Assembly: GCF_004010195.1 (NCBI RefSeq)
Contig: NC_057719.1
Location: forward strand, 42,869,925 to 42,933,924
Length of the DNA: 64,000 nt
Direction of reading: 5' to 3'
Origin: Chiloscyllium plagiosum
Taxonomy: Eukaryota
Shown piece by piece: positions 5,466 through 63,257 of the stretch. The first letter of the stretch is position 1. Each line of letters opens with the position of its first letter. Below the pieces are notes generated by a model that saw only the letters and a program-made list of their open reading frames with translations, made no database searches and was not told the origin of the DNA. A program made the position numbers and the translations under genes.

Positions 5466-5858
5466 GTTAAAAATCAGACAACACCAGGTTTTAGTCCAAC
5501 ATGTTTATTTGGAAGTACTAGCTTTCAGAGCGCTGCTCCTTCATCAGGTAGCTGTGAGACAGGATCATAAGACACAGAATTTATAGCAAAAAATTACAAT
5601 GTCATGCAACTGAAATGATATATTGAACAAACCAAGATAACAGCAATCTAGGTTTGCTCAATATATCATTTCAGTTGCATGACACTGTCATCTTTTGCTA
5701 TAAATTCTGTGTCTTATGATCCTGTCCCACACCTACTTGATGAAGGAGCAGCAGCGCAAAAGCTAGTGCTTCCAAATTAACCTGCTAGGACCATGACCTG
5801 GAGTTGTGTGATTTTTAACTTTGTGCAGCCCAATCCAACACCAGCTCCTTCACATCAT
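5466..5858. mobile_element. Fold-back Penelope-like terminal-repeat element (family B)
   Basis: Inverted arms of ~170 bp around a centre near 5640. Sequence matches the 3' terminal repeat of the GIY-YIG element at 61913-63257. Confidence 0.8.
5516..5550 (-). ncRNA. Minimal hammerhead-ribozyme motif (family B)
   Basis: Minus strand reads TAC-CTGATGA-A-GGAGC-agc-GCTCT-GAAA-GCTA-GTA. Confidence 0.65.
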
Positions 5859-6149
5859 TTTATTATTTGGAGGATTGTGATGTGGTTTACTTTGTTGGTT
5901 CTGAGTATTGCCTTACCTGTTGGTTATAGTGAGACTTGAGGCACTTGTTTTCAGGACCCCATTTCTTAGTGGGATTTTTTTACTGTTAACTGTTAGTGTG
6001 TCATGTGTTTGTCAATTTGTATGACGTTGAATAAAAAAAACTAAATAAAACAATCACGTTTGTACCTCTTGGTAAAGCCCTCATTTTCACTTCATTAAGT
6101 AAAAAGGGCTGGAGACGAGAATGATTAAAACTGGCTTACCCATTCATTG

Positions 6150-6340
6150 TCGATCTCAGAAGATCAGTCATTGGCTATATTCAGACAGAGATTGACAAAT
6201 ACCTAGCCATTAAATATTTCAAGGGATGTGGGAAAGGTGTGCCCAAAAGGTGTTGATTTTGACCATCAGGCATACTCTAGTTGAATTGCAGAATAAGCTC
6301 AAGGGTCTGAAAACCCAATCCTACTCCTATTTTTCTATTT
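6150..6340 (+). mobile_element. Old CR1-like LINE 3' end
   Basis: Degenerate match to CR1 3' ends elsewhere in the window (gacagagattgac...ctactcctattttt). Confidence 0.55.
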
Positions 6341-6419
6341 GCAGCTGTGTGATTGCCAAATCACATCTACTGCTGTAACTCTTCTTTATACTAATTTCAC
6401 CAGTAGAATCACCAGTTCC

Positions 6420-6830
6420 ATGCCTTCACAGCAGCCTTCCTATATAAACTTGAACTTTCCAGAATTCTGTTGACTGTGTCTTAAATTCTCCAAGTCCAGT
6501 TCACCCATCACCCAGAGCTCACTACATACATTGGCTCAGCAAGACCTCAATTTTCAAAGTCTCTTCATTTTTTAAATCTCTTGCAAGGCCTTGTCTCTCC
6601 CTATTTCTGTAACATTCTTTGGCTCCCCAGAGCCCTCTGTAGCTCATATCCAATGTGCAACCCCAACATCAGTCCCTCCAGCATTGGTGAGTTAGCCTTA
6701 AGCTGCTAAAGCGAATAGCGCTGGATTCTATCCCAAACCCATTCCCCTCCCACCCACAGTCTACTTCTTTAAGACCATCTTCAAAACCTATTTCATTAAC
6801 CACTTTTTTTTTGGCTATCTAACTGATAAC
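6420..6830 (+). mobile_element. Degenerate L2-like LINE 3' fragment
   Basis: cacccatcaccc...ctacattggct...tttcaaagtctc...aaaacctatttc pattern typical of L2 ORF2 ends. Confidence 0.5.
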
Positions 6831-7825
6831 CTTTTATGTGACTCAGAGGCAAATTTCAATGAATATTCTCTTTTGAATCATCTGGGGACTTTTATTGACT
6901 TAAAAGGACAACATTAATGTAATTTATGTGCTCCAGACTTTTTCAAAGCTGCAGAAAATGCCACAGCAGACCACAGCCACAATAGTGGGTTCCATAGTGA
7001 CACTGCTGTTGCTGTTTGAAGGCCCAGGAATCCCATTTGCAGGCAATATCACATCTGAATTACTCAATTACGTCTACCTTCATGGTAACCTCATGGAAAT
7101 ACTGAAACTTGTTTTTCAATGTTTTCTAAGGATCTGATGGCACAACCATTAACTAGCTATGGAAGCTGTGCTTGCAGTAGCTCTGGGACTTTAACTTGAT
7201 CGACAAATGACTAATGGTTAAAAAACTAATAAGGAGGGAGAAAATTGGTTGTGGAAGTAAATTGGCAAGCACTATAAAAACAGTCAGCAAGAGCTAGAGC
7301 TATATTCTATGAGCATTTAAATAGAAATGGAGCAACTAAATTAAGTGTGGGACTCATTGGAAATTAAACTAGGGAATTGATAATTGGGAACAGGGAAATG
7401 GCAGATAAATAAGACCAATATTTTGCATTGATCTTTCTAGTGGGATACACTATAAACATCCCAAAGATAACAGGTATGCAAGGTGCTAATGGGGGGGAAA
7501 CATCATGTAATAGTCTCTATCATGAGGGACAAAGTATTTGAAAAACTGAAGGCAGACAAGACACCAGATCTAAAGGCCTGGATCCAAGGTTTTAAAGGGA
7601 AGTGCTGCAGAGATAGTGGAAGCACTGATCAAAATGTTTCAGAGCTCTTTGGATTCTGGAAAGGTTTCAGTCGATTGGAAAACTGTCCATATAACGTCCC
7701 TGCTATTGAAGAGAGGGAAAGAGAAAGCAGGATACTACAGACCAGTTCGCTTAACATATGTCATTGAGAAAATGCTGAAGTCCATTATTAAGGAAGAACT
7801 AGCAAGACGCTTAGTGCAATCAAAC

Positions 7826-8965
7826 AGAGTCAACATGGCTTTGTGCATGGGAAATCATGTCTCACAAACTTGATTGAGTTTTTTGAGGAAGTAACAAAGA
7901 TAACATATGTCATTGAGAAAATGCTGAAGTCCATTATTAAGGAAGAACTAGCAAGATGCTTAGTGCAATCAAACAGAGTCAACATGGCTTTGTGCGTGGG
8001 AAATCATGTCTCATAAACTTGATTGAGTTTTTTGAGGAAGTAACAAAGAGGACTGATGAGGGCAGAGCAGTAGATGTGATCTGTATGGACTTCAGTAAGG
8101 CGTTTGACAAGGTTCCCCATGGGAGACTGATTAGCAAGGTTAGATCTCACGGAATACAGGGAGAACTAGCCATTTGGATACAGAACTGGCTCAAAGGTAG
8201 AAGACAGAGGGTAGTGATGGAGGGTTTTTTTCAGACTGGAGGCCTGTGACCAGTGGAGTGCCACAAGAATCGGTGCTGGGTCCACTACTTTTTGTCATTT
8301 ACATAAATGATTTGGATGCGAGCATAAGAGGTACAGTTAGTAAGTTTGCAGATGACACCAAAATTGGGGGTGTAGGTGGACAGAAAAGAGGGTTACCTCA
8401 GATTACAACAGGATCTTGACCAGATGGGCCAAATGGGCTGAGAAGTGGCAGATGGTGTTTAATTCAGATAAATGTGAGGTGCTGCATTTTGGGAGAGCAA
8501 ATCTTAGCAGGACTTATACACTTAATGGTAAAGTCATAGGGAATGTTGCTGAACAAAGAGACCTTGGAGTGCACGTTCATAGCTCCGTGAAAGTGGAGTC
8601 GCAGGTAGATAGGATAGTGAAGAAGGTGTTTGGTATGCTTTCCTTTATTGGTCAGAGTATTGAGTACAGGAGTTCATAGGTTTAGGGTGAGAGGGGAAAG
8701 ATATAAAAGAGACCTACTGGGCAACATTTTCACACAGAGGATGGTACGTGTATGTAATGAGCTGCCAGAGGAAATGGTGGAGGCTGGTATAATTGCAACA
8801 TTTAAGAGGCATTTGGATGGGTATATAAATAAGAAGGGTTTGGAGGGATATGGGCCGAGTGCTGGCAGGTGTGACTAGATTGAGTTGGGATATCCGGTCG
8901 GCACAGGCGGGTTGGACCGAAGGGTCTGTTTCCATGCTGTACACCTCTATGACTCTATGATTCTA
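7826..8965 (+). mobile_element. Younger 5'-truncated CR1 (HER1-like) LINE with internal deletion near 8672
   Basis: QHGFVRGKSCLINLIEFFEEVTK...DFSKAFDKVPHGRLISKV, FADDTK motif, and tail ctctatgactctatgattctatg. Confidence 0.9.
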
Positions 8966-9970
8966 TGAAACTGAAATCATGTTTGACAAATTTGCCAGAG
9001 TTAGTATTTTTCTCACTGGAATTTTTTTTAACAAGTGGAATGCCTCAAGGATCTGTCCTACAGCCTCAATTATTTACTATCAATATTAATGTCTTGGAGG
9101 AGGGGGCAGAGTGTAATGTATCCAGATTTGCTGACAGTACAAAAAAGAAGGAAGGGCATGTCGTGATGAAGACATAAGCAAGGAGACACTTCCGAACACT
9201 TGCGTTTATGAACGAAATCCCATATTACAATTAATTTTAAGGATCCAACATGCAAAGATTCACTCATACAAATGAGTATATTATACAGTACTGTATTGTG
9301 TTCTGATTTGCATACAAACTGACTTATGAATGAAATCAGCAAAGGAATGCATTTGTGACCTAGGGACTGCCTGTAGGACAAGGTTTAGTGAATGGCAACA
9401 AGTTGCTAGATGGTGTTTAATGTAGGAAAATGTGAGGTCAACTCTTTGGTAAGTATTACCAAAAGGCAGAGTATTATTTAAATAGAGAAAGACTTCAAAA
9501 AGAAGTGTTCTTGTGCATGAAACACAAAAGGTTAGCATGCAGGTGCAGCAGATTTAAGACGACAAATGGAATTGGCTGTTAGGCGGTTGGAATTAAAAAA
9601 AAAAGGAAGATCTTGTTACAACAGTACAGGGTATTGGTGAGGCCACTCCTGGAGTATTGTGTACAGTTTTGGTCTTGTATTTACAAAAGGGTATAAAAAA
9701 GTGCAGTTAAAAAGCGATTCACCCATTGTTTCCTGGTATGACACGGTTGACTTATCAAGAGCAGCTTAACAGGTTAGACCTTTATTAATTACAATTCAAA
9801 AAAAAAAGGGGCAATCTTAATGAAGTACACAAGATTCTGGAGCAGCTTAATAGGATGGACAATGGGATGATGTTTCCATTAGTGGGGGAAAGTCAAACAG
9901 CGGACATAGTTACAAAAGAAGGGATACTCATTTAAAACTGAGATGCGAATGAATTTCTTCTTCCAGAGAT

Positions 9971-10299
9971 GGGTGGCACGGTGGCACGGTGGCTCAGTGG
10001 TTAGCACTGCAGCCTCACAGCACCAGGGACCCGGGTTCGATTCCAGCCTTGGACGATTATCTGTGTGGAGTTTATACATTCTCCCAGTGACTGCATAGGT
10101 TTCCTCCCACAATACAAAGATTTGCAGGCTAGGTGAGTTGGCCATGCTAAATTGCCTATAGTGTTCAGGATGTGTAGGTTAGGTGCATAAGTCAGGAGTA
10201 AATGTAGAGTAATAGGGTATGGGTCTGGGTGGGTTACTCTTCGGAGGGTTGGTGTGGACTTGTTGATCAGAAGAGCCTATTTCCACACTGTAGGGATTC
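9971..10299 (+). mobile_element. tRNA-derived SINE (HE1-like)
   Basis: Pol III A box tggctcagtgg, B box ggttcgattcc, CR1-like tail ccacactgtagggattc; inserted in the old CR1. Confidence 0.88.
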
Positions 10300-11242
10300 C
10301 ATGAGATATTGAAAGCCTGGAATTGTCAAATAGTTGTGGAGGCTAGATTACTGAAGATACTTAAAGAGGAGATATTTAGAATTTTAAAATATCAGGGAGT
10401 TGCCAACTATGCTGAGCTGGAATGAAGGAGGAATTGAGGCCTTGAGCAGATCAGCCATCATCTTGTTGAATGACAGGGACAGTTTGAGGGGCCAAATGGC
10501 TTGCTCCTGCTCCTATTTCTTATGTACTAACAAGACGAGCAAAGCCTGATAAGAGGAGAAATCTGTGAAGAGTAAGGAGGAACAGAGTTCTTCACAGAAG
10601 GCTGTGCCACCATATGTTCTCAAGCTTCATTTAATCCTATGGAAATGCATGAGCTGAATCTGATTCAACAAGGAGCTTATTTGTATCACCTCCTTCAATA
10701 CAACATGAGGCCTCACACAATGACAAGGATGGGTCTGCCAGCATTTGTAAGGTTACAGTGGGGTTGAATTTCAAAATATCTGGACTTATCATGTGGGGGA
10801 GGATGACATAACCAACCTCTGCCCATATACCATCCAAGGATGCTTCCAGAATGTGATGAAAATGGGCTATATTAGGAGTGGTACATATATCAGGACCTGA
10901 GGAATCCAGCCATTGCTAAATAAGCTGCATGGATAAAGCTACCTTCATTTTGAAGCAGTCTGCTATTCCTGCAGTCTTTGTAACTCCACAGAGAACCATA
11001 GCATGGCTAATTGGACACAAAACATATCAGTGCAGATGACCACTGATTTCCCTCTGCCCATGCACGGGAATTGCCTATAATGAAAACTATAGAGTGATCA
11101 GAACCATCATGGAGGAGACTGTTGGCACGCTGGAGAAACACTTCTCGTACCTGGTTCAACCACACAGTGCCCACAAGTAAACATTAAAATATGTTGAACT
11201 CAGCGGCAGTCTGCTGCAATCTCCATACGTCATCACAATGCT

Positions 11243-11386
11243 ACAGAATTCTGATGAAGAGCTTATGCTCAAAACGTTGACTCTCCTGGTCCTCGGCTGC
11301 TGCCTGACTGGCTGTGCTTTTCCAGCACTACACGTTTTGACTCTGATCTCCAGCATATGCAGTCCTCACTTTCTCCACAGAATTCT
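11243..11386 (+). mobile_element. Short PLE-derived element (family A) with degenerate hammerhead
   Basis: CTGATGA-A-GAGC-ttat-GCTC-aAAAC; flanked by acagaattct (11243-11252 and 11377-11386). Confidence 0.75.
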
Positions 11387-12328
11387 CAGTCAAGTATCTG
11401 AATGCCAGCTCATGAGGAGACAGAGGAAGAGTTGAGGCAGAGCATAGTACTACTGACTTTGTCATCTTCCGACTCGCCGATAAGTCCACAAAGCTATTGA
11501 ATTTCTCCCCAAGTATAGCCCCGTTGAATAATGGAAATCGATGATGTCATAACACATTAAAGGGAAAAATGTACTAGAGAGTATACGAAATAAGTATTGC
11601 AGGCATTCAAACTAAATTTGCTTCAGCAAAAATGAACTTTATAGAGATGAGACCAGATTAAGTGGTTTTAGGTGCCTTTATAAAATTGACCAGCCTACTA
11701 ACAGATGTCACATGTTCAATTCTCTACTCTCCTAGAGCGGCCTGGCATATAATGTACAATTTTGGCAATTAAAAGCCTGAATCATATAAACTACCTTTGT
11801 TCATTCAGTATATCATCTTTGAAGAGTTCCCTATTCTAGAATGTGCATGTGAGAAAGAGATTTAAAATATATGGCTGTGATTTTATTTTTTTTTTAAATA
11901 TCAAAGCAGGCTAGATAAACTGAATAGGCTACCAATGTTCCAATGATCTTATGTGATAAATGTCAAGATCTGTCTGAAAACAGTAACCAGTGAAATATTA
12001 CAGAGAATTATTCCTCTAAAGAGATTTCAACAATTATCATCTTCTGGAAGCTGAACTTAAAAGTACATTTATCCTCTAGTGAACTAAAATAAAGACAAAT
12101 AACAAACTTTATTTTAGGAGTGAGTGGAATTTAAATGGTAATCTTTCTCTCACTGTGAATGTGCCCCCTTAGTGTCCTCTTACTGTATGAGGCAGAAACA
12201 ACATTATAATTCATAATAAGAACTGCCAACAGAATATACTTAATTATGTATTTTTAAGTAATTTCTAAGGAAATGACATTAACAGTAGAAGCAGTGAACA
12301 ACTGATATTTAACAGAAAATAGACCCAC

Positions 12329-14126: not shown

Positions 14127-14538
14127 CTAGCATGAGAAGATGCTGGTGGAAGTCTTTCTGAAGAAGGGCTCATGCCCAAAACATCGATTCTCCGGCTCCT
14201 TGGATGCTGCCTGACCTGCTGCGCTTTTCCAGCAACACATTTTCAGCTCTGATCTCCAGCATCTGCAGTCCTCACTTTCTCCTCGAAGAGTGTGGCCAAT
14301 GCCAGGACACTGAATAAATTTGAGGGGATAGACAGATAGATAGGTTTTAACTAGTCATGGGTTAAAGGGTTCTGGGAAGTGGACAGTTATGTGGAGTTAA
14401 GGCCAAGATAAAATCAGCCATGTTAGTATTAAATGGTGGAGCAGTCTCAAGGGCTCACTTGCTTACTCCTGCTCTTAGTTCTTATGTTTGTATGTTCTTA
14501 TTGCCTATTCTCAGCTAGCATGAGAAGGTGCTGGTGGA
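14127..14538 (+). mobile_element. CR1 3' end plus family A element, bracketed by a 24-bp direct repeat
   Basis: ctagcatgagaag(a/g)tgctggtgga at 14127-14150 and 14515-14538; family A copy at 14155-14285. Confidence 0.72.
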
Positions 14539-18158: not shown

Positions 18159-18279
18159 CTGTAAAGAAATAAGAAGAAAATGCAAATAAGGCAGCAGGTA
18201 GTTTTAATATTATTTTGTTCTATTTGTCTCCAAATTATGAACAATTTTTTAAATCCCATAAGTAGCAAAAAAAACCTAC

Positions 18280-18387: not shown

Positions 18388-19659
18388 CTGCATACGAAAG
18401 TTCAGAAATTGGTTGAAATGAGTGCGAATCTTCAAGGTTCTGATCACAAAATGTAATACTTGCATTGAAGTAAATCTGTGTTAAACAATCCTGTAGCTGG
18501 GTTTGAGGCAGATAATTGAAGCTAGACCTTTCTGTCAGCACTATCAGAACAAGTGGCAGCTTTATTCCACTGGGAGTGATACCTCATTGGCGTCCTAAAT
18601 ATAGAATGGGACCTTAGTTGCAAATTGTGTGGGCTGACCTCTTCTGACCTCTTCTGATGAGAGTGCTGCTTCTCTGTTTCTCAGCCTGTTTTAAATTGTC
18701 AAACATCAGTGGGACTAGGGTTATACATGCACATCATCGTCTTAAACCCAGTACCTCCAAATACCCCTTTGAAAACATGAACAAAAATCATCTGCCATGA
18801 TTTTGTGCAATTTTGCCCAGTGCATTGTGAATTTAAATTCCTATATTTCTGTGAAAAATGTAAATCGCTGGATTCTACCTCTACAGTGTTTGACCTCACC
18901 TTTTAAAAAAGTACATAGAAAGATGGTAGAACATATATACCCAACAGAATAGGCATTTAGTATTTTGGAGTGTGAGGAGCAAAACTAATGTAGTCTGTGG
19001 ATTTTGGACACATTCATGAGTGAGCAGGATGCTGGTATTTGGCAGGGGTTAGTTGTGAAATTTAGCCAAGAGGGATTAGCAATATTGGGCACAAAGTCCT
19101 ACAAGTCAGGTCTAACTACACCCGGTCCTGGAGTATGGAAATACTGCAGAAAGGACTTTTGGCTGAACAGGAAGTTATAATGTAGATATTAGCTGTCCTT
19201 GTGACTTAGTTATGATGGTGAATCCTAGATTCCCGTAGCCCCAGCTGAAGGATACCAGCAAGTAGCAGCATTGTGTGAGTCAAATGCCAATATTGCTCAG
19301 TATTGTGAGAGCATCTGAGTTTGATAATTCTGGAGAACATCCTGGGATCTGTAAACTTCGGAGTCAATGGTCCTAGAGGTTGGAAGTGCTAAAAATTAAT
19401 AGAATCATAGAATCATTGACTGATTACAGTCTAGAAGGTGGCCCATCATAGCCCATTATGTTTATGCTGGCTCTCTGCAGCCTCAATTCATTAAGTCCCA
19501 TTCTCTGTGGTCCTTTAAAGTTTCTCTAATAAATTGTCATTTGAAAGTCCTGATTGCAACTGACTCCACCACATTCTTTACAAAGTGCATTGAAGATTCT
19601 AACCCCAGGCAGGATGTCAAAGTATCTCTCAGGTAGGGAAAGAGTTAAAACAGGGATGA

Positions 19660-19950
19660 AGTGAGGACTGCAGATACTAGATATTAGAGTCGAGAGTGTG
19701 ATGCTGGAAAAGCATGCAGGTCAGGTAGCATCTGGGGAGCAGGAGAATCAATGATTCAGGTATAAGCCCTTCATCAGGAATGAAGCTTATGGGTTGGGTG
19801 GCAGAGAGAAAAATGGGAGGGGGTTGGGGCTGGGGGGAAGGTAGCTGAGAATGCAATAGGCAGATGAAAGTGGGGGAAAAGGTGATAGATCAGAGAGGAA
19901 GGTGGAGTGGATAGGTGGGAAAGACAATGGACAGGTCAAGAAGGCAATTT
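19660..19950 (-). mobile_element. Family A PLE-derived element with purine-rich extension
   Basis: gtgaggactgcagat...aagcccttcatcaggaatga followed by a GA-rich tract like 57280-57365. Confidence 0.7.
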
Positions 19951-20192
19951 ACATGTGAAAGAACTGAAACCAACATGTTCATTCTAAAACATGAGAGACT
20001 TAACAAACAATCCAGGTCTTTTTCAATATATAATTTCAGTTTCATCACAATGTAAGCTTTTGCTATAAATTCTGTGTCTTATGATCTTATTCTCCACAAC
20101 CACCTGATGAAGGGGCAGCGTTCCGAAAGCTAGTGCTTCCAAATAAACCTATTGGTCTGTAACCTGGTATTGTGTGATTTTTAACTTTGTAC
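19950..20192 (+). mobile_element. Family B PLE 3' terminal repeat with hammerhead at 20101-20135
   Basis: Matches 63015-63257; CAC-CTGATGA-A-GGGGC-agc-GTTCC-GAAA-GCTA-GTG. Confidence 0.8.
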
Positions 20193-20894
20193 ATCCATTA
20201 ACATTTTACAACTATAACTTTTGAAGTGTAGTCACTGTCTTGATGTTAGTCAATTTTAGTAGGTTCACATAAGAAACAAACAGCTGAGTGTCCATATAAT
20301 TTGTTCTGTTAGGGACGATGGTTGGTCAGGACACCAAGAGTTAAATGATCTTTTACAACCATCTGAATCAGGAACAGGTTTTGAAAAGCAGGACACCCTG
20401 AATATTGTATTGAAAAGTCATAGCAGATTACACTACATTCTGCTACAGAACCCATAAATGTTTGATTTCCAGTTGGAAGTGCTGCTAACTGATGCATGTG
20501 TTCACACTTGAGACGCAATCAAAACTGAAGCTAAATATTTTTTTCCTATGTTTTACAATTTTCTTGCTACTTTGCTTAGCTTCTTGAGAAAATAGAAAGA
20601 GGAAAAGACAAACAAATTGTAGTGCAGAGCTGGGTGTGATCTAGAACAGGTGAGGTTGTTGAGTGCAATTAGCCTGAAGCATTTTCTGACATTTTGCAAA
20701 GGTTACATCAAGTATAATTACATAGAATAAAATGAACTCAACAGGTGGTTGCAGCTTTTACATTTTAATCTTTCAGAGCAATTCTAGATACTGATCATAG
20801 TTTTATTGTGAAAAGTCAAAAGGAGATAGTATTTTTGCATTTTTTTTTGTTGGACATGAATTACAACCTACCCATCAACATTGATTTTGATCAA

Positions 20895-21100: not shown

Positions 21101-22609
21101 CCAGAGAAGATGTTAGATGCTCATCTGAATTACAGCTCTTAAGAGAGTGAAAACAGGACCACTAAGGTGATAGCATAGTCAGATCTAAATCCAAAGAAGC
21201 TGATTGTTACAAGACAGTTAGTTATCTTTTAATTCAAGATAATCTGGAGTCATTCAGAGAGGGTGATTTAATCTCATACAAATATACCATGAGACAAGCC
21301 CACGTGAACTATTTGTTATGGAAACAGAAACTCAAATCAATGTTTATTAAAAGTGATATGTGAGTTTTAACACATTAACACAACAGAGGCAGCTGGAATC
21401 TTGTTGAGGGGTTGGGGGTCTCACCTGTTGACTGAAGAGCTGGAGAGACACCCAAGATGCCACTGGAAAGGCCCTCCAAACCACAGGTCAGTCAACCAGT
21501 GTGAGGCTAACGGAGGGTCTCCCACTGGACTTAAGACCCAGGGGGTCAGGGTTTTGTCTACTCGGAGCTGGAAGCTGATCAAGTGTAGTAGCTCTTGTTT
21601 TAAGAAAATACAGCTGCCAGTAAGTTTGAAAGCACACTGTAGTTACCATGCCCTCAGCTGTTTATCCCTTTGTGGATTCTGTACTCCCTTGGTTGCTTAT
21701 TGTCTGCACTTATGTTCTTGTAGGCTGCACTGGCTTATTAGACTGTGACTCTTCTGAGTTCCAAGCATCCCTAATTTGTCTTATAAGAGATTTAAGCCGT
21801 CTCACAACTTCTGTACTGTAAACTCCTTATTTGCACTTTGACAGTGCAGTATTGAATGCTGCTCTCTCGTACAGTGTTTCATTCCTGCTCCATTACATTC
21901 TTCTCTTTCACCTGCCCTCTTCTGCTCTTCTGAAGTCAGAGTTGTATCATCATCATCATCATTATCTATTTGCATTCTAATTAAAACAGCCCTTGTGCTC
22001 TGCAGCGTAACAGGGCAGATCAGGTGGAACACTCCTTGCAGGCACAGGATTGTAGAGATACACAGGACACAGTAAAGTGGGAATGGATGAGGTTTCCAGG
22101 GTTGAAAGTGGTGTGTGCAGGGGTCGGTTCAAGGGCAGGGGTCTGGCTCTCAACACGCACCCCCTCTCTATTGTCCAGTCCCTCAATTGATGTCCAGTCT
22201 CTTTTTCTGAAGAAGACCTATTGGTTTGGAAGAGTTCTATACAGATGCTGACTGAGCTGCTGCATTTGTCTGGCACTTTCTGATTTTATTTCCCATTTCC
22301 AGTATCTGCAGTTATTTGTTTTTATCAAATTTTAAGCTGTACACATTTATTTTCCAATGTCTACCTTTGTTCCTAAACATGAAAGGCAGTAGTGGCACTT
22401 TACAGCCTTCCAGACTCAAGAATGAGTTCAACAATCTTAGATCATAATAAGCACTTTCACTTCATAGGATGACAGCTGTTGGTAACCATTCTGCTATTGC
22501 CATTTACACATCCAAGACCCACCTTTTGTTTCTTTATTTATCCCATTACATTCCTGTTCGGCCCTGCAGTCCTGTCTTCCTCTTTGCCATTTGACTAGAA
22601 TTCTTTAGA

Positions 22610-27149: not shown

Positions 27150-27375
27150 CAAAACATAAACTGAAAAAACTGCAGATGCTGTAAATCGGAAAGAAAAACA
27201 GAAATTGCTGGAAAAGCTCAGCAGGTCTAGCAGCATCTGTGGAGAGAAATGTGAGTTAACATTTTGGGTTGAGTGCCTCTTCCTCAGAACACAGACCTGA
27301 AACATTAACTCTGATTTCTCTCTACAGATACTACCAGACCTGCTGAGCTTTTTCCAGCAATTACTGTTTTTTTTG
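27150..27375. mobile_element. Fold-back PLE-derived element (family A-related, older)
   Basis: aaacagaaattgctggaaaagctcagcaggtct is inverted as agacctgctgagctttttccagcaattactgttt. Confidence 0.72.
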
Positions 27376-30750: not shown

Positions 30751-30810
30751 CATCAGAGGTCATAGTGTCATGGAGATGTACAGCACAGAAGGCTGTGCAA
30801 TTAGATAATA

Positions 30811-31325: not shown

Positions 31326-31680
31326 GTACTGACTTGCATCTTCCTGTAGTAATACACATAAAGGCAAAAAACTATGGATGCTGGAAATCTGAAAAAAACC
31401 AGAATGATGGAGAAACCCAGCAGATCTGGCAGCATCTGACTCATTCTGAAGAAGTGTCATACTGGTCTCAGCAAGTCTGGTAGCATCTATGGTGAGAGAA
31501 ACAGAGTTAACTCTTTGAGACAGGTATGACTCTTCTTCATAATGATTCAGATGCTGCCAGATCTGCTGAGTTCTCTACCATTCTCTGTGTTTGTTTTTCA
31601 GATTTCCAGCATCCATAGTATTTTGCCTTTAATTGAGTATACATATTTGTGTATTACTACAGGAAGATACAAGTAAATAC
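31326..31680. repeat. Large inverted repeat built from an older PLE-derived element plus flank
   Basis: acttgcatcttcctgtagtaatacaca...cagatctggcagcatctga is mirrored by tcagatgctgccagatctg...tgtgtattactacaggaagatacaagt. Confidence 0.8.
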
Positions 31681-34902: not shown

Positions 34903-35113
34903 AGTCAAAAAGTGTGGAGCTGGAAAATCACAGCAGGTCAGGCAGCATCCAAGGAGCAGGAGAGTTGACATTTCAGGCATAAACCTTTCATAAACCATTC
35001 CTATTGAAAAGCTTATACCCAAAACATCGGCTCTTCTGCTCCTGACCGGCTGTGCTTTTCCAGCACCACGCTTTTCAACTTTGAACTCCAGCATCTACAG
35101 TCCTCACTTTCTA
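34903..35113. mobile_element. Fold-back family A element
   Basis: Two opposed partial copies of the family A unit. Confidence 0.75.
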
Positions 35114-35114
35114 C

Positions 35115-35975
35115 TAGTCATAGAGTCATAGAGAAGTACAGCATGGAAACAGACCCTTCGGTCCAACTTGTCCATGCTGACCAGATATTCTAAGTTAATC
35201 TCGTCCCACCTGCCAGCACCCGACCCTTATCCCTCCAAACTCTAATATTGCAATTGTACCAGCCTCCACCACTTCCTCTGGCAGCCCATTCCACACACGC
35301 ACCACTCTTTGGCTGAAAAAGTTGCCCGTTAGGTCGCCTTTATATCTTTCCTCTCTCACCCTAAATAATCCCCTCTAATTCTGGACTCCCCCTCCACAGA
35401 GAAAAGACCTTGTCTATTTACCCTATTCATGCCCCTCATGATTTTATAAACCTCTATAAGGTCACCCCTCAGCCTCTGACGCTCCAAGGAAAACAGCCCC
35501 AGCCTATTCAACCTCTCCCTATAGCTCAAATCCTCCTACCCTGGAAATCCTTGTAAGTCTTTTCTGAACCTTTTCAAATTTCACAACATCCTTCCGATAG
35601 GAAGGAGACCAGAATTGCACGCAATATTCCAAAGCAATGTTCTGTACAGTCACAACATGACCTCCCAACTCCTGTACTCAATACTCTGACCAATAAAGGA
35701 AAGCATACCAAATGCCTTCTTCACTATCATATCTACCTGTGACTCTACTTTCAAGAAGCTATGAACTTGCACTCCAAGGTCTCTTTGTTGGACACTGCCT
35801 AGGACTTTACCATTAAGTATATAAGTCCTGCTAAGGTTTGCTTTTCAAAATGCAGCACCTCGCATTTATCTAAATCAAACTTCATCTGCCACTCCTCAGC
35901 CCACTTTCTCATCTGGTCCAAATCCTGTTGTAATCTGAGGTAACCTTCTTCACTATCCACTACACCTCCAATTTT
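35115..35975 (-). mobile_element. Young CR1 (HER1-like) LINE 3' fragment
   Basis: Reverse complement of 8370-8960 and 58277-59000; tail gtcatagagtcatagag. Confidence 0.9.
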
Positions 35976-37199: not shown

Positions 37200-37400
37200 A
37201 AAAAAAAGAAAGTGCTGGAGAAACTCAGCAGGTCTGGCATCATGAGTGGAGAGAGAAACAGAATTGAACGTTTCAAATCCAGTATTATTCGTTACTTTGC
37301 TTCTTTCTCCATAGCTGCTGCAAAATCTGCTGGGTTTCACTCGTACTTTTTGTTTTAATTTCAGATCTCCAGAATCCACACTACTTGGCTTTTATTTCAA
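37200..37400. mobile_element. Older fold-back PLE-derived element
   Basis: gctggagaaactcagcaggtctggcatc...tttcagatctccagaatccac. Confidence 0.6.
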
Positions 37401-40129: not shown

Positions 40130-40282
40130 GTTAAAAATCACCATATGTTAGTTAAAAATCGCACAACACCCCGTTATAGTCCAACAGGTTTATTTAGGAG
40201 CTAGTATTTGAATTATAACCGGGTGTTGTGCGATTTTCAACTTTGTCCACCCCAGTCCAACACCAACACCTCCGCATCATGG
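40130..40282. mobile_element. Internally deleted fold-back family B element
   Basis: gttaaaaatcgcacaacaccccgttatag / ttataaccgggtgttgtgcgattttcaac. Confidence 0.72.
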
Positions 40283-43419: not shown

Positions 43420-43568
43420 CAGTTTCCTACTAGCAGAGGTGGGTACTGCAGATGCTGGAGATTAGAGTCAAGATTAGAGTGGTACTGGAAATGCACAGTT
43501 CAAGCAGCATCCGGGAGCAGGAAAATCGATGTTTCGGACAAAAGCCCTTCATCATGCAGTTTCCTACT
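43420..43568 (-). mobile_element. Family A element with 12-bp TSD
   Basis: cagtttcctact at 43420-43431 and 43557-43568. Confidence 0.8.
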
Positions 43569-44479: not shown

Positions 44480-44621
44480 CCATGCATTCCTGATGAAGGG
44501 CTTATGCCCGAAACGCCAATTCTCCTGATCCTCAGATGCTGCCTGACCTGCTGTGCTTTTCCAGCACCACACTCTCGACACTGACCTCCAGCATCTGCAG
44601 TCCCTACTTTCTCCATGCATT
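44480..44621 (+). mobile_element. Family A element with 9-bp TSD and hammerhead motif
   Basis: ccatgcatt at both ends; CTGATGA-A-GGGC-ttat-GCCC-GAAAC at 44490-44514, with the cleavage-site U mutated. Confidence 0.8.
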
Positions 44622-45609: not shown

Positions 45610-45830
45610 CCATGATGTGGAGGTGCCACTGTTGGACTGGAGTGGACAAAGTCAGAAGTCACACAACATCAGGTTATAGTCCAACACTTTTATTTAACAT
45701 CACAAGCTGTTGAAGCGCTGTTACTTGGTCAGCTGGAGTATCTACCTGACGAATGAGCATCACTCCAAAAGCTTGTGATTTTAAATAAACCTGTTGGACT
45801 ATAACCTAGTGTCATGTAATTTCTGACTTC
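45610..45830. mobile_element. Older fold-back family B element
   Basis: aagtcagaagtcacacaacatcaggttatagtccaaca / tgttggactataacctagtgtcatgtaatttctgactt. Confidence 0.72.
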
Positions 45831-47040: not shown

Positions 47041-47049
47041 AAGTCCAAT

Positions 47050-48900
47050 TAGTTAGAATGAATGTGCCAGATCAATTGGAAGACTTGGGGGTTCATCCCT
47101 GGTTGCTCATGGGCCAAAAGGGTACAGACTTGCTTGGAGTACCCTGTCCACATGCAGGGCTCACACTCCTCAGCTTAGACTGGTGCTGGCTTTGGGATCA
47201 CAGGCTGGGGGAAAAGTCAGGTTCCTGTGGAATGTCTTCAGAAGAAGCTTTGTGGGGGTGCCTTTGTCCACTGCCCTGGAGTAAAGGCACTGGAGTAAGG
47301 TCAACTTCCCTCTGCCTCCTATTGTCTTGCCACTGCTGTAGCTGCAGTGATAGTGTGCAAGTCTGTGCATGTATCTGACAGACACTAAGTTTTGGGTCTG
47401 GCTCTTCATGGTGCTCACTGAACTGTCCAGGAAGGCAGCCAAGCATATGCTTCCACAGCCAGCTCTCCATCATGTATCCAGTTTACAGAACATCTCTGAC
47501 AAACCTGCTCTCAGTTCCTATGCATGTCTGTGCATTTGGCAAAGTCATCCATAGCTGAGACCAGGTGCCCATACTTTGCCTTGTGCTAGGCAGATGCCTG
47601 GTCTCCAGAAGGCTGAGTGTCAGCAGCAGGCAGCACTTCTTCCTCAGCCAACTGTGGAGGTGCAACAATGAGGCATTCACCAGACTGTGGCCCGATGTCT
47701 AATCTGTCAGAGTACCATTGTGGTGAAAGTCTCTGAGCTGGTGAATGGTGTGGATGAAATCTTTGCGCGTGCATTCCCTGAGGCTTCACTGGCTTCCTCC
47801 TCAGGGGTGGCGATGGCATTAATGATCTGTGGCTCTGGCCACTTTGTAAAGTTTTGCTGGGTGCATTAAGTCTTATGTAGGCTACAGTGGTAATGGGAGA
47901 ACAGTACAGCACAATGATCCTTATTGGGTTGATTACCCAGTGAGGCCTCCCTGTCCCCTCAGCTCCTGATGAGGGAGCAGCGCTCCGAAAGCTATTGCTT
48001 CCAAATAAACCTGTTGAACTATAACCTGGTGTTGTGTGATTTTTAACTTTGTCCAGCCCAGTTAACACCAGCTCCTCAACATCATGTCCCCACGTGAGTT
48101 GTCCTGTTCTCCTCTGACCAGATGAATGATTTTCTCTTGGTAAAGAATGAAGAACCTGATGTCCTGCCCCTCCCTATCCTTCCCCACTACCTCGCCCCCT
48201 CATTGCCCTCCCAGTTGTTGAAGAATTTCTCCTGCAATGACACAAATGGAGGGATTGAGAATGATGGAAATGGATGGAATAGCAATTAATGTAGATGCAT
48301 GAGCAGGAGAGATGATCAGGTGTTCCCAGTGAGTAAGTAGGAAGCACAGTGAGCACAAATGGGTAGAACTTGTAGAGGATGGGGTGAGTGGACATGACTC
48401 ATAGAATAATGAGAATTGCCATCCGTGGAGCTTGATAAATTGTATGTTTAATGACAGAGTTAGAGTGAGTGTTGGCCCCGTAAATACTAGGGCATAGATA
48501 GTGGTGCTTATCCTTGCGGATTGCAGAAGGTTATTGACCTTCTTTCTACACTGCTGAGCAGTCTGCTTTAGTTGGGGCACAGCACTGATCCTTGATCTCT
48601 GCCCAGGCTGGTTTGCTCTAGTGGTATGGCCCTCCTGTGGCAGTCACAGGGAAATGGACAGTCCTCCTCTCTACCACTATATCTATGGACACCGTCCCTG
48701 ACTGTGGCACAGAAAGCTCGCTTGTCTTTCTTTAAGGCTATGCCTTCAATGTTTAGTCTCAAGCACCACGGCATAAGGGGCCATTCCTGTGTCTGAAGCA
48801 ATATGCAGCTGCATTTTAAATATGGTTCCAGAGGCACGCAGGCCAGGTGGTCTCACCAGTGGTAAGTCTCAATGCTTCTCTGGCCTCACAGCTCCCCAAG
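47050..48900 (-). mobile_element. Decayed Harbinger-like element, Myb/SANT DNA-binding ORF remnant
   Basis: QTAQQCRKKVNNLLQSAR resembles the Myb/SANT (trihelix) motif of Harbinger accessory proteins. The region is locally GC-richer and frameshifted; no transposase or TIRs identified. Confidence 0.55.
47952..48091 (+). mobile_element. Family B element with hammerhead core and 7-bp TSD
   Basis: tgtcccc at both ends; CTGATGA-G-GGAGC-agc-GCTCC-GAAA-GCTA at 47966-47994. Confidence 0.78.
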
Positions 48901-51374: not shown

Positions 51375-51623
51375 ACACATTCAACCTAGAGGAGAAAGTG
51401 AGGTCTGCAGATGCTGGAGATCAGAGATGGAAATGTGTTGCTGGAAAAGCGCAGCAGGTCAGGCAGCATCTAGGGAACAGGAGAATCGACGTTTCGGGCA
51501 TTAGCCCTTCTTAGCCCTTCTGAAGAAGGGCTAATGCCCGAAACGTCGATTCTCCTGTTCCCTAGATGCTGCCTGACCTGCTGCGCTTTTCCAGCAACAC
51601 ATTTCCATCACACGTTCAACCTA
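51375..51623. mobile_element. Young fold-back family A element with perfect 87-bp arms and 14-bp TSD
   Basis: Arms 51426-51512 and 51523-51609 are exact inverted copies; TSD acac(a/g)ttcaaccta. Confidence 0.9.
51517..51550 (+). ncRNA. Minimal hammerhead-ribozyme motif (family A, intact core)
   Basis: CTGAAGA-A-GGGC-taat-GCCC-GAAA-CGTC-GAT. Confidence 0.65.
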
Positions 51624-55080: not shown

Positions 55081-55154
55081 TGCCTTCTTGCTTCAAAACT
55101 GCTTCTTTAAGTCCAAGGGACGAAAACTTAAATGGATATGGCAGACAATTAGGC

Positions 55155-55283
55155 AAAAGTGAGGACGGCAGAAGCTGGAAACCAGAGTTTAGATTAGAGT
55201 GTTGCTGGAAAAGGACAGCAGGTCAGGCAGCATCCGAGGATCAGGAAAATCGACGTTTTGGGCAAAAGCCCTTCATCAGGAAT
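55155..55283 (-). mobile_element. Family A element
   Basis: Minus strand CTGATGA-A-GGGC-tttt-GCCC-aAAACGTCGA. Confidence 0.78.
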
Positions 55284-55659
55284 AGATCTCCTCCTGTCCT
55301 GATTTAGCATCATCCTTTAGTTTAGGCACAGCAAGAGGGTGATAGTAGAGAAACTAAAGGACGATGCTAAATCAGGACAAGAGGCTGGGGGCTCATGAGG
55401 GAATGTTTAGCTCAGCAGGCCACTTGAAGTGATAAAAATGGCTGAGGCAGTTGGCCTCAATATTAGTGACAAAGTCTAGGAGTTCCTTGTGTCTATTGAT
55501 GGAGGTAAGCAGAAAGGAGACAGGCAAGGGGGTGTTTAAAATGGCAGATTTCTGTAGAAAGAAAGAACTCAGGGGTTACCTTTACATTCCTACTATCTTT
55601 TTCTCTTCAAAGTCTTTGAATATGTCCTCACCTCACAAATCAGTGTTTATCCCTCCACA

Positions 55660-57173: not shown

Positions 57174-57374
57174 AAGCACAGTGTGGAGCTGAAAAATGTG
57201 TTGCTGGAAAAGCGCAGCAGGTCAGGCAGCATTCAAGGAGCAGGAGAATCAACGTTTCGGGCATAAGCCCTTCTTCAGGAATGAGGAGGGTGTGCCAAGC
57301 AGGCTAAGATAAAAGGTAGGGAGGAGGGACTTGGGGGAGGGGTGTTGGGAATGCGATAGGTGGAAGCACAGTGT
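57174..57374 (-). mobile_element. Family A element with intact hammerhead core and 11-bp TSD
   Basis: aagcacagtgt at both ends; minus strand CTGAAGA-A-GGGC-ttat-GCCC-GAAA-CGTT-GAT at ~57248-57281. Confidence 0.82.
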
Positions 57375-58276
57375 AAAAACATTAATTAAAACCATAATCA
57401 ATCATGTATAGACTATAACATGCTGCAACATGATCTCAAGGGCTCACACAATCCTTATAAATGCTTTAAGATGTTTGTTATACAAATGTTCACAGACAGA
57501 TTATACTCAAAATTTCTTCACCAGCTTTAATAGAAAGTTTCAAATATTTTGAATATTTCCGAGATTTTTGTAGCCTTTTGCTGGTGGAGGCTGAATAATA
57601 TGATGATAGGACTCTCAATTACACTAAGGGAGTTTGGCCATCAGGTAGTACTTGGAAAAAGTTAATGCTGCGATCATCTCAATCATGAACAAACTATTCA
57701 TGATTCATTGTCTCACTTAGGACAATAACTGAACTTCTCAATGGCCTCAATGGTATTATATATTTTCCCCCAGTGGTTTTAATTTAAAATGTCAACATTC
57801 AACAATAGTACAAATTGATTATTAATTGATTAGGAAGGTAATTTCCCAAAAAGGCAGAAATCCCCATTTACGTCATTTCCTTCATTGAGACCTTTATTTT
57901 TATTCCAACTCCATTTCAGACCTAATCCTTCCAGAAATCACATTTCCAAGGTTTGTGCAGGTCTATCATTCTACTATCAAAGTTAAAAAACAAACAACAC
58001 CAGGTTATAGTCCAACAGATTTATTTGGAAGCCCTAGCTTTTTGGAATGCTGCACTTTCATCAGCTAGACGTGGAGGATAAGATCATGATCACAGAATTT
58101 ATAGCCAAAGGAGTCCATGTCACGGAGGTATGATACATTAAATAATTTTAGATTAATTCTTTCATCTTTTAAAATTGGATAAACTGGTTTCTGTTCTTTG
58201 ATATGTAAATGCCAGAACTTCTTTTAAATTACATTCTCAAGATAGTTCAGCTTTTCCAACGATAGCATTTTGAGAA

Positions 58277-59005
58277 AGTAAATCTTAGCAGGACTTATAC
58301 ACTTATTAGTCTGCACCTTGGAGTGCAGGTTCAGAGCTCTTTGAAAGTAGATTTGCAGGTGGATAGGATCGTGAAGAAAGCGTTTGGTATGCTTTCCTGT
58401 ATTGGTCAGAGTTTTGAGTACAGGCGTTGGGAGGTCATGTTGCGGCTGTACAGGACATTGGTTAGGCCACTGTTGGAGTACTGTATGTAATTCTGGTCTC
58501 CTTCCTATCGGAAAGATGTTGTGAAACTTGAAAGAGTTCAGAAAAGATTTACAAGGATGTTGCCAGGGTTGGAGGATTTGAGCTATAGGGAGAGGTTGAA
58601 TAGGCTGGGGCTGTTTTCTTTGGAGCCTCGGAGGCTGAGGGGTGACTTTGTAGAGGTATATAAAATCATGAGGGGCATGGATAGGATAAATAGACAATGT
58701 CTTTTCTCTGGGGCGTGGGAGTCCAGACTAAAGGGAATAGGTTTTGATGAGAGGGGAAAGATATAAAAGAGACCTAAGGGGCAGAATTTTCACACAGAGG
58801 GTGGTACATGTATGGAATGAGTTGCAGAGGAAGTGGTGGAGGCTGGTACGATTGTAACATTTAAAAGGCATCTGGATGAGTATATGATAAGGAAGGGTTT
58901 GGAGGGATATGGGCCAGGTGCTGGTAGGTGGGACTAGATTGGGTTGGAATATCTGGTCGGCATGGACGGGTTGGACCGAAGGTTCTTTTTCAGTGCTGTA
59001 CCATT
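58277..59005 (+). mobile_element. Young CR1 (HER1-like) LINE 3' fragment nested in PLE arm
   Basis: KLERVQKRFTRMLPGLEDLSYRERLNRLGLFSLEPRRLRGD peptide. Confidence 0.9.
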
Positions 59006-60152
59006 CTCTTACCCTGTGACTCTAACAGGTGTGACGTCTCTCTGTGCCCCAATGTTTAATCAGACTTACAAGCCCTCTACATAGTTTTTCAAAGTTAAAA
59101 ATCACACAACATCAGGTTATAGTTAACAGATTTATTTGGAAGCACTAGCTTTCGGAGCACCGCTCCTTCACAGAATTTTTAGCAAAGATTTACAGTGTGA
59201 TCCAACTGAAATTATATATTGAAAAAGACCTAGATTGTTTGTTGAGTCTCTCACCTTTTAGAATGACCATGTTGGTTTCAGTTCTTTCATATGTAAATCC
59301 AAGAACTTTGTTTTAAAATTGCATTCTCAAGTTAACTTTAACAATAGATGCTATGTCGTCTCAGATAATGCATTGAAGGTGTGAGGTACCCTATGTGAGG
59401 CTGTCTGTGCCCCAATGTTCAGACTGATTTTAATCTAAAAATGGGATTTACAGAATCTTACATGGATTCATGCAGTTTTTTGAGCAAAATAAAATATAAA
59501 TCTGGATGTACAAATTTACCCCATAAACATATGTGTGTGTGTATGCATGTGCGTGTGTATGAATGTGTGTGGGGTTGGAGGTGGGGGGCACTGTTGGCAG
59601 TGTGGTATGAGTGTCTGTGAGAGAGTTTGTGTATGTGTATGTGGGGTCAAAGGTGGATTTTGGGACAAGCAACAACACAGAGTGGCTAAGCAGAAGCTGA
59701 TCGCAAAGTTCAGGAATGGCCTCAACTGGGACCTTGCGTTCATGTCACATAACGGGTGATCCCACTGCACGATATACTCTGTCACAGATAAACACACTCC
59801 TACATGCTCACACACCCACGCAGACCCTCTCTCATACACAAGCTCTCTCTCTCATATGCACACACAGACACACCTTCCTCACTCACACTCACACACACAT
59901 AACCAAGCTTACACACATTCTATCTTGTGCACTCATGCCCACATGCACCCACTCACATGCACATTCACTCTGCCACTCCTACAAGCGCACACATATAAGT
60001 TTATGGGGAGAATTTGTTTTTGCAGAATTGCATTTTATTTTGCTCAGTGGCTGCATGAATCCATGTAAAACTCTGTAAAACTATGCAGAGGGCTTGTCAG
60101 TCTGACTCAAGGTTGGGACACAGACAGACTTCACACCTATTGTTAGAAAAGC

Positions 60153-60388
60153 TGAGCTTGAGAAGTGATTTGGAGATGCCAGTGTTGGACTGGGGTGTAC
60201 AAAGTTAAAAATCACACAACACCAGGTTATAGTCCAACAGGTTTAATTGGAAGCACACTAGCTTTCGAAGCGACGCTCCTTCATCATCACTGCCACCCGA
60301 TGAAGGAGCGTCACTCCGAAAGCTAGTGTTTTTTCAATTACACCCGTTGGACTATAACCTGGTGGTGTGTGATTTTGAGCTTGAGAAG
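60153..60388. mobile_element. Fold-back family B mini-element with 13-bp TSD
   Basis: tgagcttgagaag at 60153-60165 and 60376-60388; two opposed, core-mutated hammerhead motifs. Confidence 0.82.
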
Positions 60389-61912
60389 GTAATTTAAAAG
60401 AAGTTCCGGGATTTACATATCAAAGAACAGAAACCATCATATCCCATTATAAAAGATGAAAGATCTAATCTAAAATTGTTTAATGCATCACTGGACTCCT
60501 TTGGCTATAAATTCTGTGATCATGATCTTATCCTCCATAATCACCCGATGAAGCAGTGTCACTCCGAAAGCTAGGGCTATCAAATAAGCCCTTGGGACTA
60601 TAACCTGGTGTTGTGTGACTTTTAACTTTGTCCAGCCCAATCCAAAACTGGCAAGTCCAAGTCATTATACTCTCAAGGTTTCATTAACGTTGCCCTGAAA
60701 CGATGTGTTTAGGTATGTTTAAGCACAAAGATAATTAATCTTGGCCTCAGACTTTTTCATTCCATCTGATGGGAGTACCTTTACCTTATGTCTGTGTGTG
60801 CCACTACAACTCTACTGAGACTGGAATTTCAGGGAATTACATTAAAAAATGAATCTTAGGGAATTACAAAGGTGAAGACTCCTTCAACAAATGCATACAT
60901 AATGGCACTTCAGTGCATTATGATCGCCATCATGACCACCTTATTACTCAATCTAATTTTGCTCAGCAAAGCATAAATAATTACAATTATACCTTATTTA
61001 TTAAACTTTGCTGAAATGCAGTTTGCAAAAATCTTTTCCAGTTTTATAAGCAAATTGGTACAAATCAACACAGTGGTAGCATTATTACTAGAATAAAGGG
61101 GTCTTCAACAAGTTTTCACAAACATACTTGAGAAGTTTGCTATTGTGCATTTAGTTTTCTAATTCAGAGTTGTATGAACTACTGAAATGAATCCCAAGGC
61201 TAAGTCATGGGGGAGTAGCCTGCTGTTCCAAGTGGATCATTGAGCAGGCAAACAGAATTCCAAGCTAAAAATAATTAGCAGTTCATGTGAGTCACATGGT
61301 GTAAGCCCAGACTCTAATTCTACAGCAGCCACATTTGTAAAATGCCTTGGGGTTTCTCCTGCTACATATGAACACAGGAGCATTAGAAATATGCTCAAAA
61401 TGTCAGACATACTCCTGATATTGACATTACTAATGGTCAGGCATTCTAGATTTCAGCCCATTCCGTCATAACTGCCTTTCTGACATTAGCAAATGTGATC
61501 CCTGTCATGCATTTTCATTTACTTTCTTCAGCAGATTGCACATAATACCATGGATGCACTACAGTTTTAAAAACAACTTTTCAATTGGAAATTTCAGAAT
61601 TTGCCCTGATTAAGGAAAGCTTTGAACATTGATTATTGTTTAAATTCTAAAGTTGGTACAGTCATTTTTTCAAGACAAGAAAATAGTTTTGAATAATGAA
61701 ATATTAAAAAGGTGATTACTTACAAACATGAATCTAATTAATTTGTTTTAATTCTTTAAAAAAACAGCTTTTTATAAATTCACCGTTAGTTTAGAGGGAA
61801 TTATATTCATGAATCATCCATCGTATGAATTACAGAGAATACTTCAATTGTAAATCTACACAGCTTTCTCATTTAAATTTTGCATTAACAATGTAATCCA
61901 AACTACTTTCAT

Positions 61913-63257
61913 AGTCCGCCTTGGAGGATGGTCACCCAAAGGTCCGAGGTCGAATATCCTGGACCACTGAAGTGTTCCCCAACTGGGAGGGAACACTCCC
62001 ATCTGTTGATTGTTGTGCGGTGCCCATTCATCCGTTGTTGTAGCCTTTGCTCGGTTTCCCCAATGTACCATGCCTCCGGGCATCCTTGCTTGCAAAGTGT
62101 AAGGTAAACAACGTTGGCTGAGTCACATGAGTACCTGCCATGTACAAGGTGGGAGGTGTCCCCACGTGTAATGGTGGTATCTATGTCCACAATCTGACAC
62201 GTCTTGCAGCGTCCACCGTGACAGGGTTGTATGGAGTTGTCCTGAGAGCCGAGCAGCTTGCTACGAACAACGATCTGTTTGAGATTTGGCAGTTGCTTAA
62301 AGGCAAGTAGTGGAGGTGCGGAGAAGGTCTTGGTGAGGTGCTCATCCTCATTGATAATGTGTTGCAGGTCACGAAGAACATAGCGTAGTTTTTCAGCTCC
62401 TGGGAAATATTGAACAACGAAGGGTGCCCTGTCGGTTGCAGCAAGGGCCTCAACCGGGACCTTGGGTTAATGTCACATTACAGGTGACCACCATTGCACT
62501 ATACACACACACAGATACTCCTACATACACACACACACGCATTCCTATACACACATACACACGGACACGCATATACACAGACACCCACACACACCCTTAC
62601 AGACACATACACTCCCACACTCACACATGCACCCCCTCACAGACTTAAGACACTCTGCACTCACTGCACACACACACATACGCTTTCTCACACTCACAAC
62701 CCTCAACCCAGACAGATACACACATACAGACAGACAAAGACCCACATGCAAACATATATTTTTTGGAGTGAATTTGTACTTGCAGGGTTACATTGTACTT
62801 TGCTCGAAAACTGCATGCATTCATGTAGAACTCTGAGCTCAAAAACTGCATGAATTCATGTAAAACTCCGTTATCTCACTTTTTAGATTAGAATCAATCT
62901 AAACATCATGGCATAGACAGAGAACACAGGAGGCTAACACCTTCAACATATTGTCTAGCTATCACCATTGCTAACAGCTAACCCGAGAGTGCAACTTTTT
63001 AATAAAAGGTTTTGTGATTTACACATGAAAAAAGTGAAACTATCATGATATTCTAACAGATGAAAGGCTGAGCAAACAATCAATTTTTCAATGTATAATT
63101 TCAGTTACATCACACTGTAAATTTTTGCTATAAATTCTTTGTGTTAGGATTGAGCCGTCCACAATCACCTGATGAAGGAGCGTCGCTCCGAAAGCTAGTG
63201 CTTCCAATTAAACCTGTTGGACTATAACCTGGTGTTGTGTGATTTTTAACTTTGTAC
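61913..63257. mobile_element. Penelope-like retroelement with inverted GIY-YIG segment and 3' terminal repeat
   Basis: Minus 61913-62430 encodes YSCDSANVVYLTLCKQGCPEAWYIGETEQRLQQRMNGH...VGEHF (GIY-YIG endonuclease). Plus 62440-63257 has the ORF end (GLNRDLGLMSHYR*), a CA-rich tract and the terminal repeat. Confidence 0.88.
63166..63200 (+). ncRNA. Minimal hammerhead-ribozyme motif (family B, intact)
   Basis: CAC-CTGATGA-A-GGAGC-gtc-GCTCC-GAAA-GCTA-GTG: 3-bp stem I, 5-bp stem II, palindromic AGCT in place of stem III. Confidence 0.75.

Follow-up and report, generated by a model that had tools for sequence, protein, structure and literature searches.

The 64,000-nucleotide stretch of the Chiloscyllium plagiosum genome analysed here (positions 42869925–42933924 of contig NC_057719.1, in a genome of 3.56 Gb; hereafter the window) is scattered with copies of two hammerhead ribozyme-bearing repeats, families A and B, which are the terminal repeats (pLTRs) of two Penelope-like elements (PLEs) encoding a reverse transcriptase (RT) and a GIY-YIG endonuclease. 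The short copies of these repeats, or stumps, are probably run-off cDNA insertions made from the 5' end of uncleaved element RNA, with coding linkage, target duplications, two fixed 3' ends, a pile-up of 5' ends, a single tail per head-to-head pair and same-subfamily arms all observed directly. Nearly all copies are dead. As annotation the result is ordinary, a known ribozyme motif in two further Penelope-like families, and minimal PLE hammerheads, tails and inverted pLTRs are already published. The stumps nevertheless preserve, on a very large scale, natural traces of reverse transcription by PLEs, and they show uncleaved RNA copied in vivo and paired arms using two start sites, one each. Among the papers listed in literature searches, largely outside subscription journals, none deals with hammerheads of shark PLEs or with strand transfer in PLEs. 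Positions within copies are numbered from 0 at the first C of CUGANGA, and the predicted cut follows +27 in family A and +28 in family B.

The window contains 11 family A-type and 14 family B terminal copies (Table 1), and all 17 positions cited in the preliminary description of this DNA, which was made from its letters, are copies of A or B, six of them marking a minus strand or an inverted arm. The sizes given there (130–400 bp) are too small for some copies, with that at 62448–63260 measuring 813 bp and adjoining an inverted coding piece. A strict descriptor of the minimal hammerhead is passed by only 6 of the 25 window copies, the others being decayed or cut. In 600 kb of arbitrarily chosen genome (sixty 10-kb stretches at fixed round coordinates, 21.6 kb of it N) the same descriptor matched 47 times, compared with 0–1 in five Markov controls, and exact intact motifs number 86,254 (A) and 16,625 (B) genome-wide, compared with 0 for reversed-pattern controls. 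As both counts far exceed their controls, a chance origin of the motif is excluded, and the high density of Penelope-like minimal type I hammerheads suggested by the preliminary description is borne out. The sample holds 120 A-type and 37 B terminal copies, extrapolating to ~0.93 million in the genome (0.79–1.09 million, Poisson error only). The ~103,000 exact intact motifs are about ten times the vertebrate counts of the survey by Cervera and de la Pena 2014 (PMC4209133), which by its own descriptor gave ~4,000 in coelacanth and ~9,000 in Xenopus tropicalis. An Rfam scan at E<=5 returned no hammerhead, only sub-threshold matches to microRNA-type hairpins. Comparisons with PMC4209133, PMC8557442, PMC11167929, PMC2377424 and bioRxiv 10.64898/2026.07.22.740005, here and below, refer to the portions of these sources that were available.

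The coding linkage of family B is visible within the window, where a 185-aa frame on the minus strand (61909–62466) carries the linker cysteines and GIY-YIG triplets, with its missing last codons resuming on the plus strand at 62448, followed by a 770-nt 3' untranslated region (UTR) and a hammerhead at 63169; the copy at 61909–63260 is a 5'-inverted insertion. The RT of longer B copies scores above the Pfam RVT_1 cutoff, and one locus (L018) holds RVT_1 and then VVY...YIGET in a single frame. The B N-terminus gave 550 candidates in a first look at the genome, and in 6 of 30 loci carrying it the pLTR runs into the open reading frame (ORF) (L138, L140, L145, L157, L162, L164), the partial tandem arrangement of an endonuclease-positive PLE. 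At L162 the endonuclease end, 3' UTR, hammerhead, tail, ATG and RT N-terminus follow in order, interrupted solely by a run of nine N. In family A, the 25 loci retrieved using a young copy as the query are 5'-truncated to graded extents, a ladder that extends up to a second GIY-YIG and the RT thumb; thumb, linker, endonuclease, 3' UTR and hammerhead with tail are unbroken at L041 and L043, the RT core is joined to the endonuclease at L038, and at all three loci RT and C-terminal GIY-YIG share one frame. Frames of 1,500–2,000 aa that appeared in the first genome look were rejected, being N gaps. One family A ORF (L194, 55–807, plus strand) has a duplicated, low-complexity Ala/Thr-rich stretch upstream of the RT N-terminus, which may be likened to the Asn-rich inserts of rotifer PLEs.

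The two proteins share only 31% identity in the RT and 35% in the endonuclease, and A and B are therefore treated as separate families. The endonuclease was called from its motifs, with no match of either endonuclease, including the window B piece, to the Pfam GIY-YIG profile; a sequence search of the PDB returned nothing. Both families have a linker of CX2-5CxxC type (CNRKKCKTC in A, CHGRRCKTC in B) and a CCHH endonuclease, with CxxC/CxxxC and two His, as in the Neptune clade. The available text of PMC8557442 lists a CxxxxCxxC-type linker for Neptune and Nematis and not for Penelope or Poseidon, so that by linker and endonuclease motifs A and B appear to be Neptune/Nematis-type PLEs. They resemble the Neptune/Nematis elements of Craig et al. 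2021 (PMC8557442) in the order of RT and C-terminal GIY-YIG, the DKG motif, partial tandems, inverted 5' copies and a 30–40 bp tail that is often at one end only; among A and B copies both the optional tail and the inverted 5' copy occur.

The short copies are direct insertions, as they are flanked by target duplications, which reach at least 7 bp in 53 of 85 solo and paired insertions compared with 3% of shuffled flank pairs. Their 3' ends lie at +80–85 or +125 in A and at +86 or ~+122 in B, that is, without or with a tail of 35–40 nt. With palindrome partners masked when upstream extension was measured, 5' edges fall at -10 to +5 in 64/120 A-type and 15/37 B copies, and at +21 to +35, around the cut site, in 10/120 and 5/37, and in independent public reads and contigs the commonest A edge is exactly -4. 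Since the 5' ends pile up at the hammerhead start, the copied RNA held the whole, uncleaved hammerhead. Compared with the consensus TATA and Initiator (Inr) motifs, family A has an Initiator-like TCATTC whose A occupies position -4, preceded at a distance of ~30 nt by TTTATCT throughout diverged subfamilies, and family B has a TATAAA at -38 that persists in young and old copies alike despite a variable spacer. Transcription would accordingly be expected to begin just before the hammerhead, at -4 in A and near -8 in B, 30 nt past TATAAA. TATA and Inr-like motifs have been described in rotifer pLTRs (PMC3846280), and an internal pLTR promoter in Drosophila Penelope (PMC2377424).

Alternatively, the 5' pile-up could mark an RT pause, an RNA processing site or pLTR recombination rather than a transcription start, which we consider very unlikely. 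A structured or protein-bound hammerhead could unseat the RT, and the start sites rest on motif matches; the enzyme would, however, reach the structure from the +28 side, and yet the copies traverse it and stop just past it. Recombination would not give this edge, because at the seven loci with ORF-start copies the upstream pLTR opens somewhere from -85 to beyond -300, or at +37, and never at -8.

The head-to-head pairs point to the manner of priming. Exactly one arm is tailed in 46 of 50 pairs from the sample and window, compared with 42 tailed among 82 solo copies (p = 2e-10). The arms of one pair differ at 20 of 283 diagnostic sites, compared with 33% between pairs, and as they carry the same subfamily marks they share one template or source. 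The untailed arm is the longer at its 5' side in 27 of 35 untied pairs (45/60 with all loci), and junctions show 1–3 nt of microhomology. One tail per pair and a usually longer untailed arm fit two RTs priming from both target ends at the two start sites, with the RT that starts at the tail dropping off earlier, whereas fold-back of a single cDNA fits the pair data poorly. Palindrome formation by self-priming or fold-back, whether of the first cDNA or on an antisense template as proposed for rotifer PLEs (PMC3846280), would also take both arms from one template and leave microhomologies of 1–3 nt, however a tailed arm that is usually shorter at its 5' side (27/35) means that neither arm can be a copy of the other, and we regard this route as improbable. 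Identical junctions recur in different subfamilies, with the one recurring junction found in three loop subfamilies, and this recurrence fits palindromes that form afresh at each insertion.

Under the reading of the stumps as run-off insertions, the element protein would cut the target and begin reverse transcription inside the RNA at ~+85 or +122/+125, with copying continuing until it runs off the RNA 5' end. Both target ends could be primed on one template, one at each site, and the two cDNAs would then join head to head through the 1–3 nt microhomology. This resembles Poseidon_Ac, a lizard (Anolis) PLE studied in vitro by Frangieh et al. 2024 (PMC11167929), in which there are two internal starts bounding the tail, both strands are cut and extended, uncleaved template is used, hammerhead cleavage is protein-assisted and a protein dimer is predicted. 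The two systems differ in the position of the ORF start, which is within stem II in Poseidon_Ac and, in family B, at the end of the tail (ATG at +120). Three features found here have no counterpart in the available part of PMC11167929, namely the 5' pile-up, the statistics on single tails and a poly(A) site between hammerhead and reverse transcription starts.

That poly(A) site emerged from a single-cell poly(A) run, ~2% of which was read, from an organism carrying family B, possibly of another species. Of 3,115 aligned family B reads, 801 end in poly(A) at +57 or +60, 15–20 nt after A(A/T)TAAA and ahead of a GU-rich stretch, where the reference is not A-rich; as 487 of them share one upstream variant, they may stem from few loci or from host transcripts. 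No such ends were seen for family A among the rows listed, and in neither read alignment do read starts or ends pile up at the cleavage site, a negative that we do not count, as single-cell poly(A) libraries are ill suited to testing this. The order in B is thus TATA, likely start, hammerhead, poly(A) site, first reverse transcription start, tail and second start at the ATG. A B RNA ending at +57 has no reverse transcription starts at its 3' end, so that long copies need either read-through RNA, the standard view, or strand transfer, both compatible with the data. The pLTR might act like a real long terminal repeat (LTR; U3-R-U5), with a start at the hammerhead, poly(A) ~30 nt past the cut, a downstream reverse transcription start on the 5' repeat, a target-primed "strong-stop" cDNA and a jump to the RNA 3' end, a proposal we put forward tentatively and think rather unlikely. 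If true, the stumps and one-tailed palindromes, about one million in all, would represent strong-stop products that had failed or been doubled, and the proposal would explain how pLTRs are regenerated. The traces left by the stumps, together with the position of the B poly(A) site ahead of the reverse transcription starts, make this strand-transfer model directly testable. At L164 the +57/+60 sites correspond to 2126–2129. Family B copies supply a used poly(A) site, and with ~200,000 copies such sites may end host transcripts.

The preliminary description took the insertions for non-autonomous mini-retroelements, a claim that does not appear to hold, with A and B being the 3' UTR and pLTR of autonomous-type elements, in a continuous ladder of longer copies, and with junctions recurring across subfamilies as fits fresh formation and not one master mini-element. 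We consider it unlikely that the short solo and palindromic copies are nonetheless genuine non-autonomous elements, or RNAs of retrozyme type, with each copy transcribed and mobilised again as a unit. Their discrete 5' and 3' edges and target duplications would suit such units, as would their great excess over copies that include the ORF start (for the B N-terminus, the 550 candidates given above), and PLE-derived retrozymes are described in vertebrates (bioRxiv 10.64898/2026.07.22.740005). Against this, subfamily sequences are common to short and long copies, junctions vary, the sole recurring one being that of the three loop subfamilies, and stumps lack the upstream TATA-like element. The non-LTR retrozymes of Li et al. 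2026 (same preprint) are likewise PLE-derived, hammerhead-bearing and non-coding, however they are defined as head-to-tail tandem arrays and the copies here are solo or head-to-head; no head-to-tail hammerhead units occur in the window and close pairs in the sample are head-to-head, no genome-wide search having been made.

The common plan CUGANGA-A-stem II-GAAA-NN-UH, the extra purine after CUGANGA (A in 84/88 family A and 34/35 family B copies spanning the site) and the palindrome, ACGU in A and AGCU in B, are as the preliminary description gave them. Core, extra base before stem II, palindromic stem III and covarying stems together are those of a minimal type I hammerhead. Among families A–D the sequences of stems I and II change with pairing kept, the palindrome staying ACGU or AGCU, and N7 and loop II are the places where active lineages vary. 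One stem II variant with compensatory changes is present in 358 exact copies, compared with ~20–65 expected from 1,305 single changes, an expectation that takes no count of the reciprocal single change, with the variant representing one lineage event. The hammerheads resemble those of the PLE pLTRs in PMC4209133 in core, unpaired base before stem II, G10.1-C11.1, palindromic stem III and short stem I, and the elements in occurring mostly as single truncated copies and opposite-strand pairs; they differ from that set in the short stem II (4–5 bp), and the available text of the survey names no shark. Weak or protein-assisted cleavage is reported for this class (PMC4209133, PMC11167929), and the A and B hammerheads likely self-cleave only weakly. 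Their cleavage is predicted to require either a dimer or assistance from protein, and would be dispensable for making short copies. Dimer cleavage of PLE hammerheads was reportedly described by Lunse and colleagues in 2017.

The preliminary description named two hammerhead families in the locus, both of which are present, and missed a third, older hammerhead-bearing repeat. This repeat is related to A, with stem II GGGUC/GACCC, GAAACGUU and stem I AGUU/AACU, has 83 exact intact motifs in the genome and accounts for a window hit at 27169 that belongs to neither A nor B. At sample loci L084 and L132 there is a fourth family, in which stem II is longer (GUUACC...GGUGAC) and the extra base is U.

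Several observations weigh against the interpretation given here. About half of the copies start outside the 5' pile-up, and among the 35 untied pairs there are 8 in which the tailed arm extends further 5'. The start sites are putative, being marked by correctly spaced matches to the Inr and TATA motifs, and the A-type count of 120 takes in ~10 related-family hits and one copy beside an assembly gap. N gaps interrupt most family A loci spanning RT to hammerhead, no intact full-length ORF of A or B was seen in the loci examined, and the partial tandem, ORF start and tail-to-ORF junction of family A were looked for and not found. For the ribozyme, the predicted lowest-energy dimer is not the active fold in two of three sequences and stem I has only 2–4 continuous pairs. 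Between A subfamilies conservation is 0.93 in the hammerhead and 0.91 in the next 50 nt (0.68 upstream), values resting on only five clusters, two of them identical. The excess of core and stem II conservation over flanks that the preliminary description set as a test among genomic copies was absent, no core excess being seen among dead copies, however this comparison is an unfair test because dead copies decay neutrally.

Table 1. Hammerhead-bearing copies and associated features in the window (window coordinates).
Feature	Position	Strand	Remarks
Cores passing the strict descriptor	~5547 (-), 20104 (+), 47966 (+), 51520 (+), 57278 (-), 63169 (+)		
Family B head-to-head pair	5466..5858	.	left arm untailed, intact core (5547-); right arm tailed; 8-bp target duplication
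Family B 5'-truncated copy with 3' UTR	19947..20196	+	intact core at 20104
Family B pair cut downstream of core	40150..40281	.	one tail
Old family B pair	45611..45829	.	one tail; 13-bp target duplication
Family B solo stump from hammerhead start	47965..48086	+	tailed; intact core
Old family B truncated copy	57978..58238	-	decayed core
Family B copy with 5' inversion	59083..60075	.	minus: 3' UTR; plus: endonuclease end and 3' UTR; 5' half of core lost
Family B pair joined at hammerhead start	60166..60382	.	one tail; 9-bp target duplication
Old family B truncated copy	60395..60665	+	tailed; decayed core
Family B inverted 5' piece: RT-thumb end, CxxxxCxxC linker, GIY-YIG endonuclease	61909..62447	-	185-aa open frame; 48,207 first-look genome candidates
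Family B: endonuclease last codons, ~770-nt 3' UTR, TATA-like box, intact hammerhead, poly(A) signal, untailed end	62448..63260	+	core 63169-63197; predicted cut after 63197
Family A solo stump	11251..11376	+	tailed; compensatory stem II (GAGC/GCUC); 10-bp target duplication
Family A solo stump	14155..14282	+	tailed
Older family A copy	19653..19944	-	~165 nt of 3' UTR
Old family A pair	34908..35112	.	one tail
Family A solo stump	43433..43554	-	tailed; 12-bp target duplication
Family A solo stump from -5	44485..44614	+	tailed; 8-bp target duplication; U16.1 to C
Family A pair joined at hammerhead start	51391..51604	.	arms identical over 87 nt; one tail; 9-bp target duplication; intact core 51520
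Family A solo stump, UUUU-loop subfamily	55151..55284	-	tailed
Young family A copy	57186..57366	-	88 nt of 3' UTR; intact core 57278; untailed
Third hammerhead repeat	27190-27375, 31356-31624, 22241-22325, 37202-37283, 63523-63578		also head-to-head pairs

Elsewhere in the window, a giant exon on the minus strand (1–4703, with a 500-N gap at 1117–1616) is built of ~650-bp repeats encoding a Lys/Pro/Val-rich repeat protein, which gave no match in Pfam and which presumably resembles AHNAK or periaxin. Interspersed with the PLE copies are long interspersed nuclear element (LINE) fragments at 8552–8974, 35104–35789 and 58239–59024, which we take to be CR1-like.

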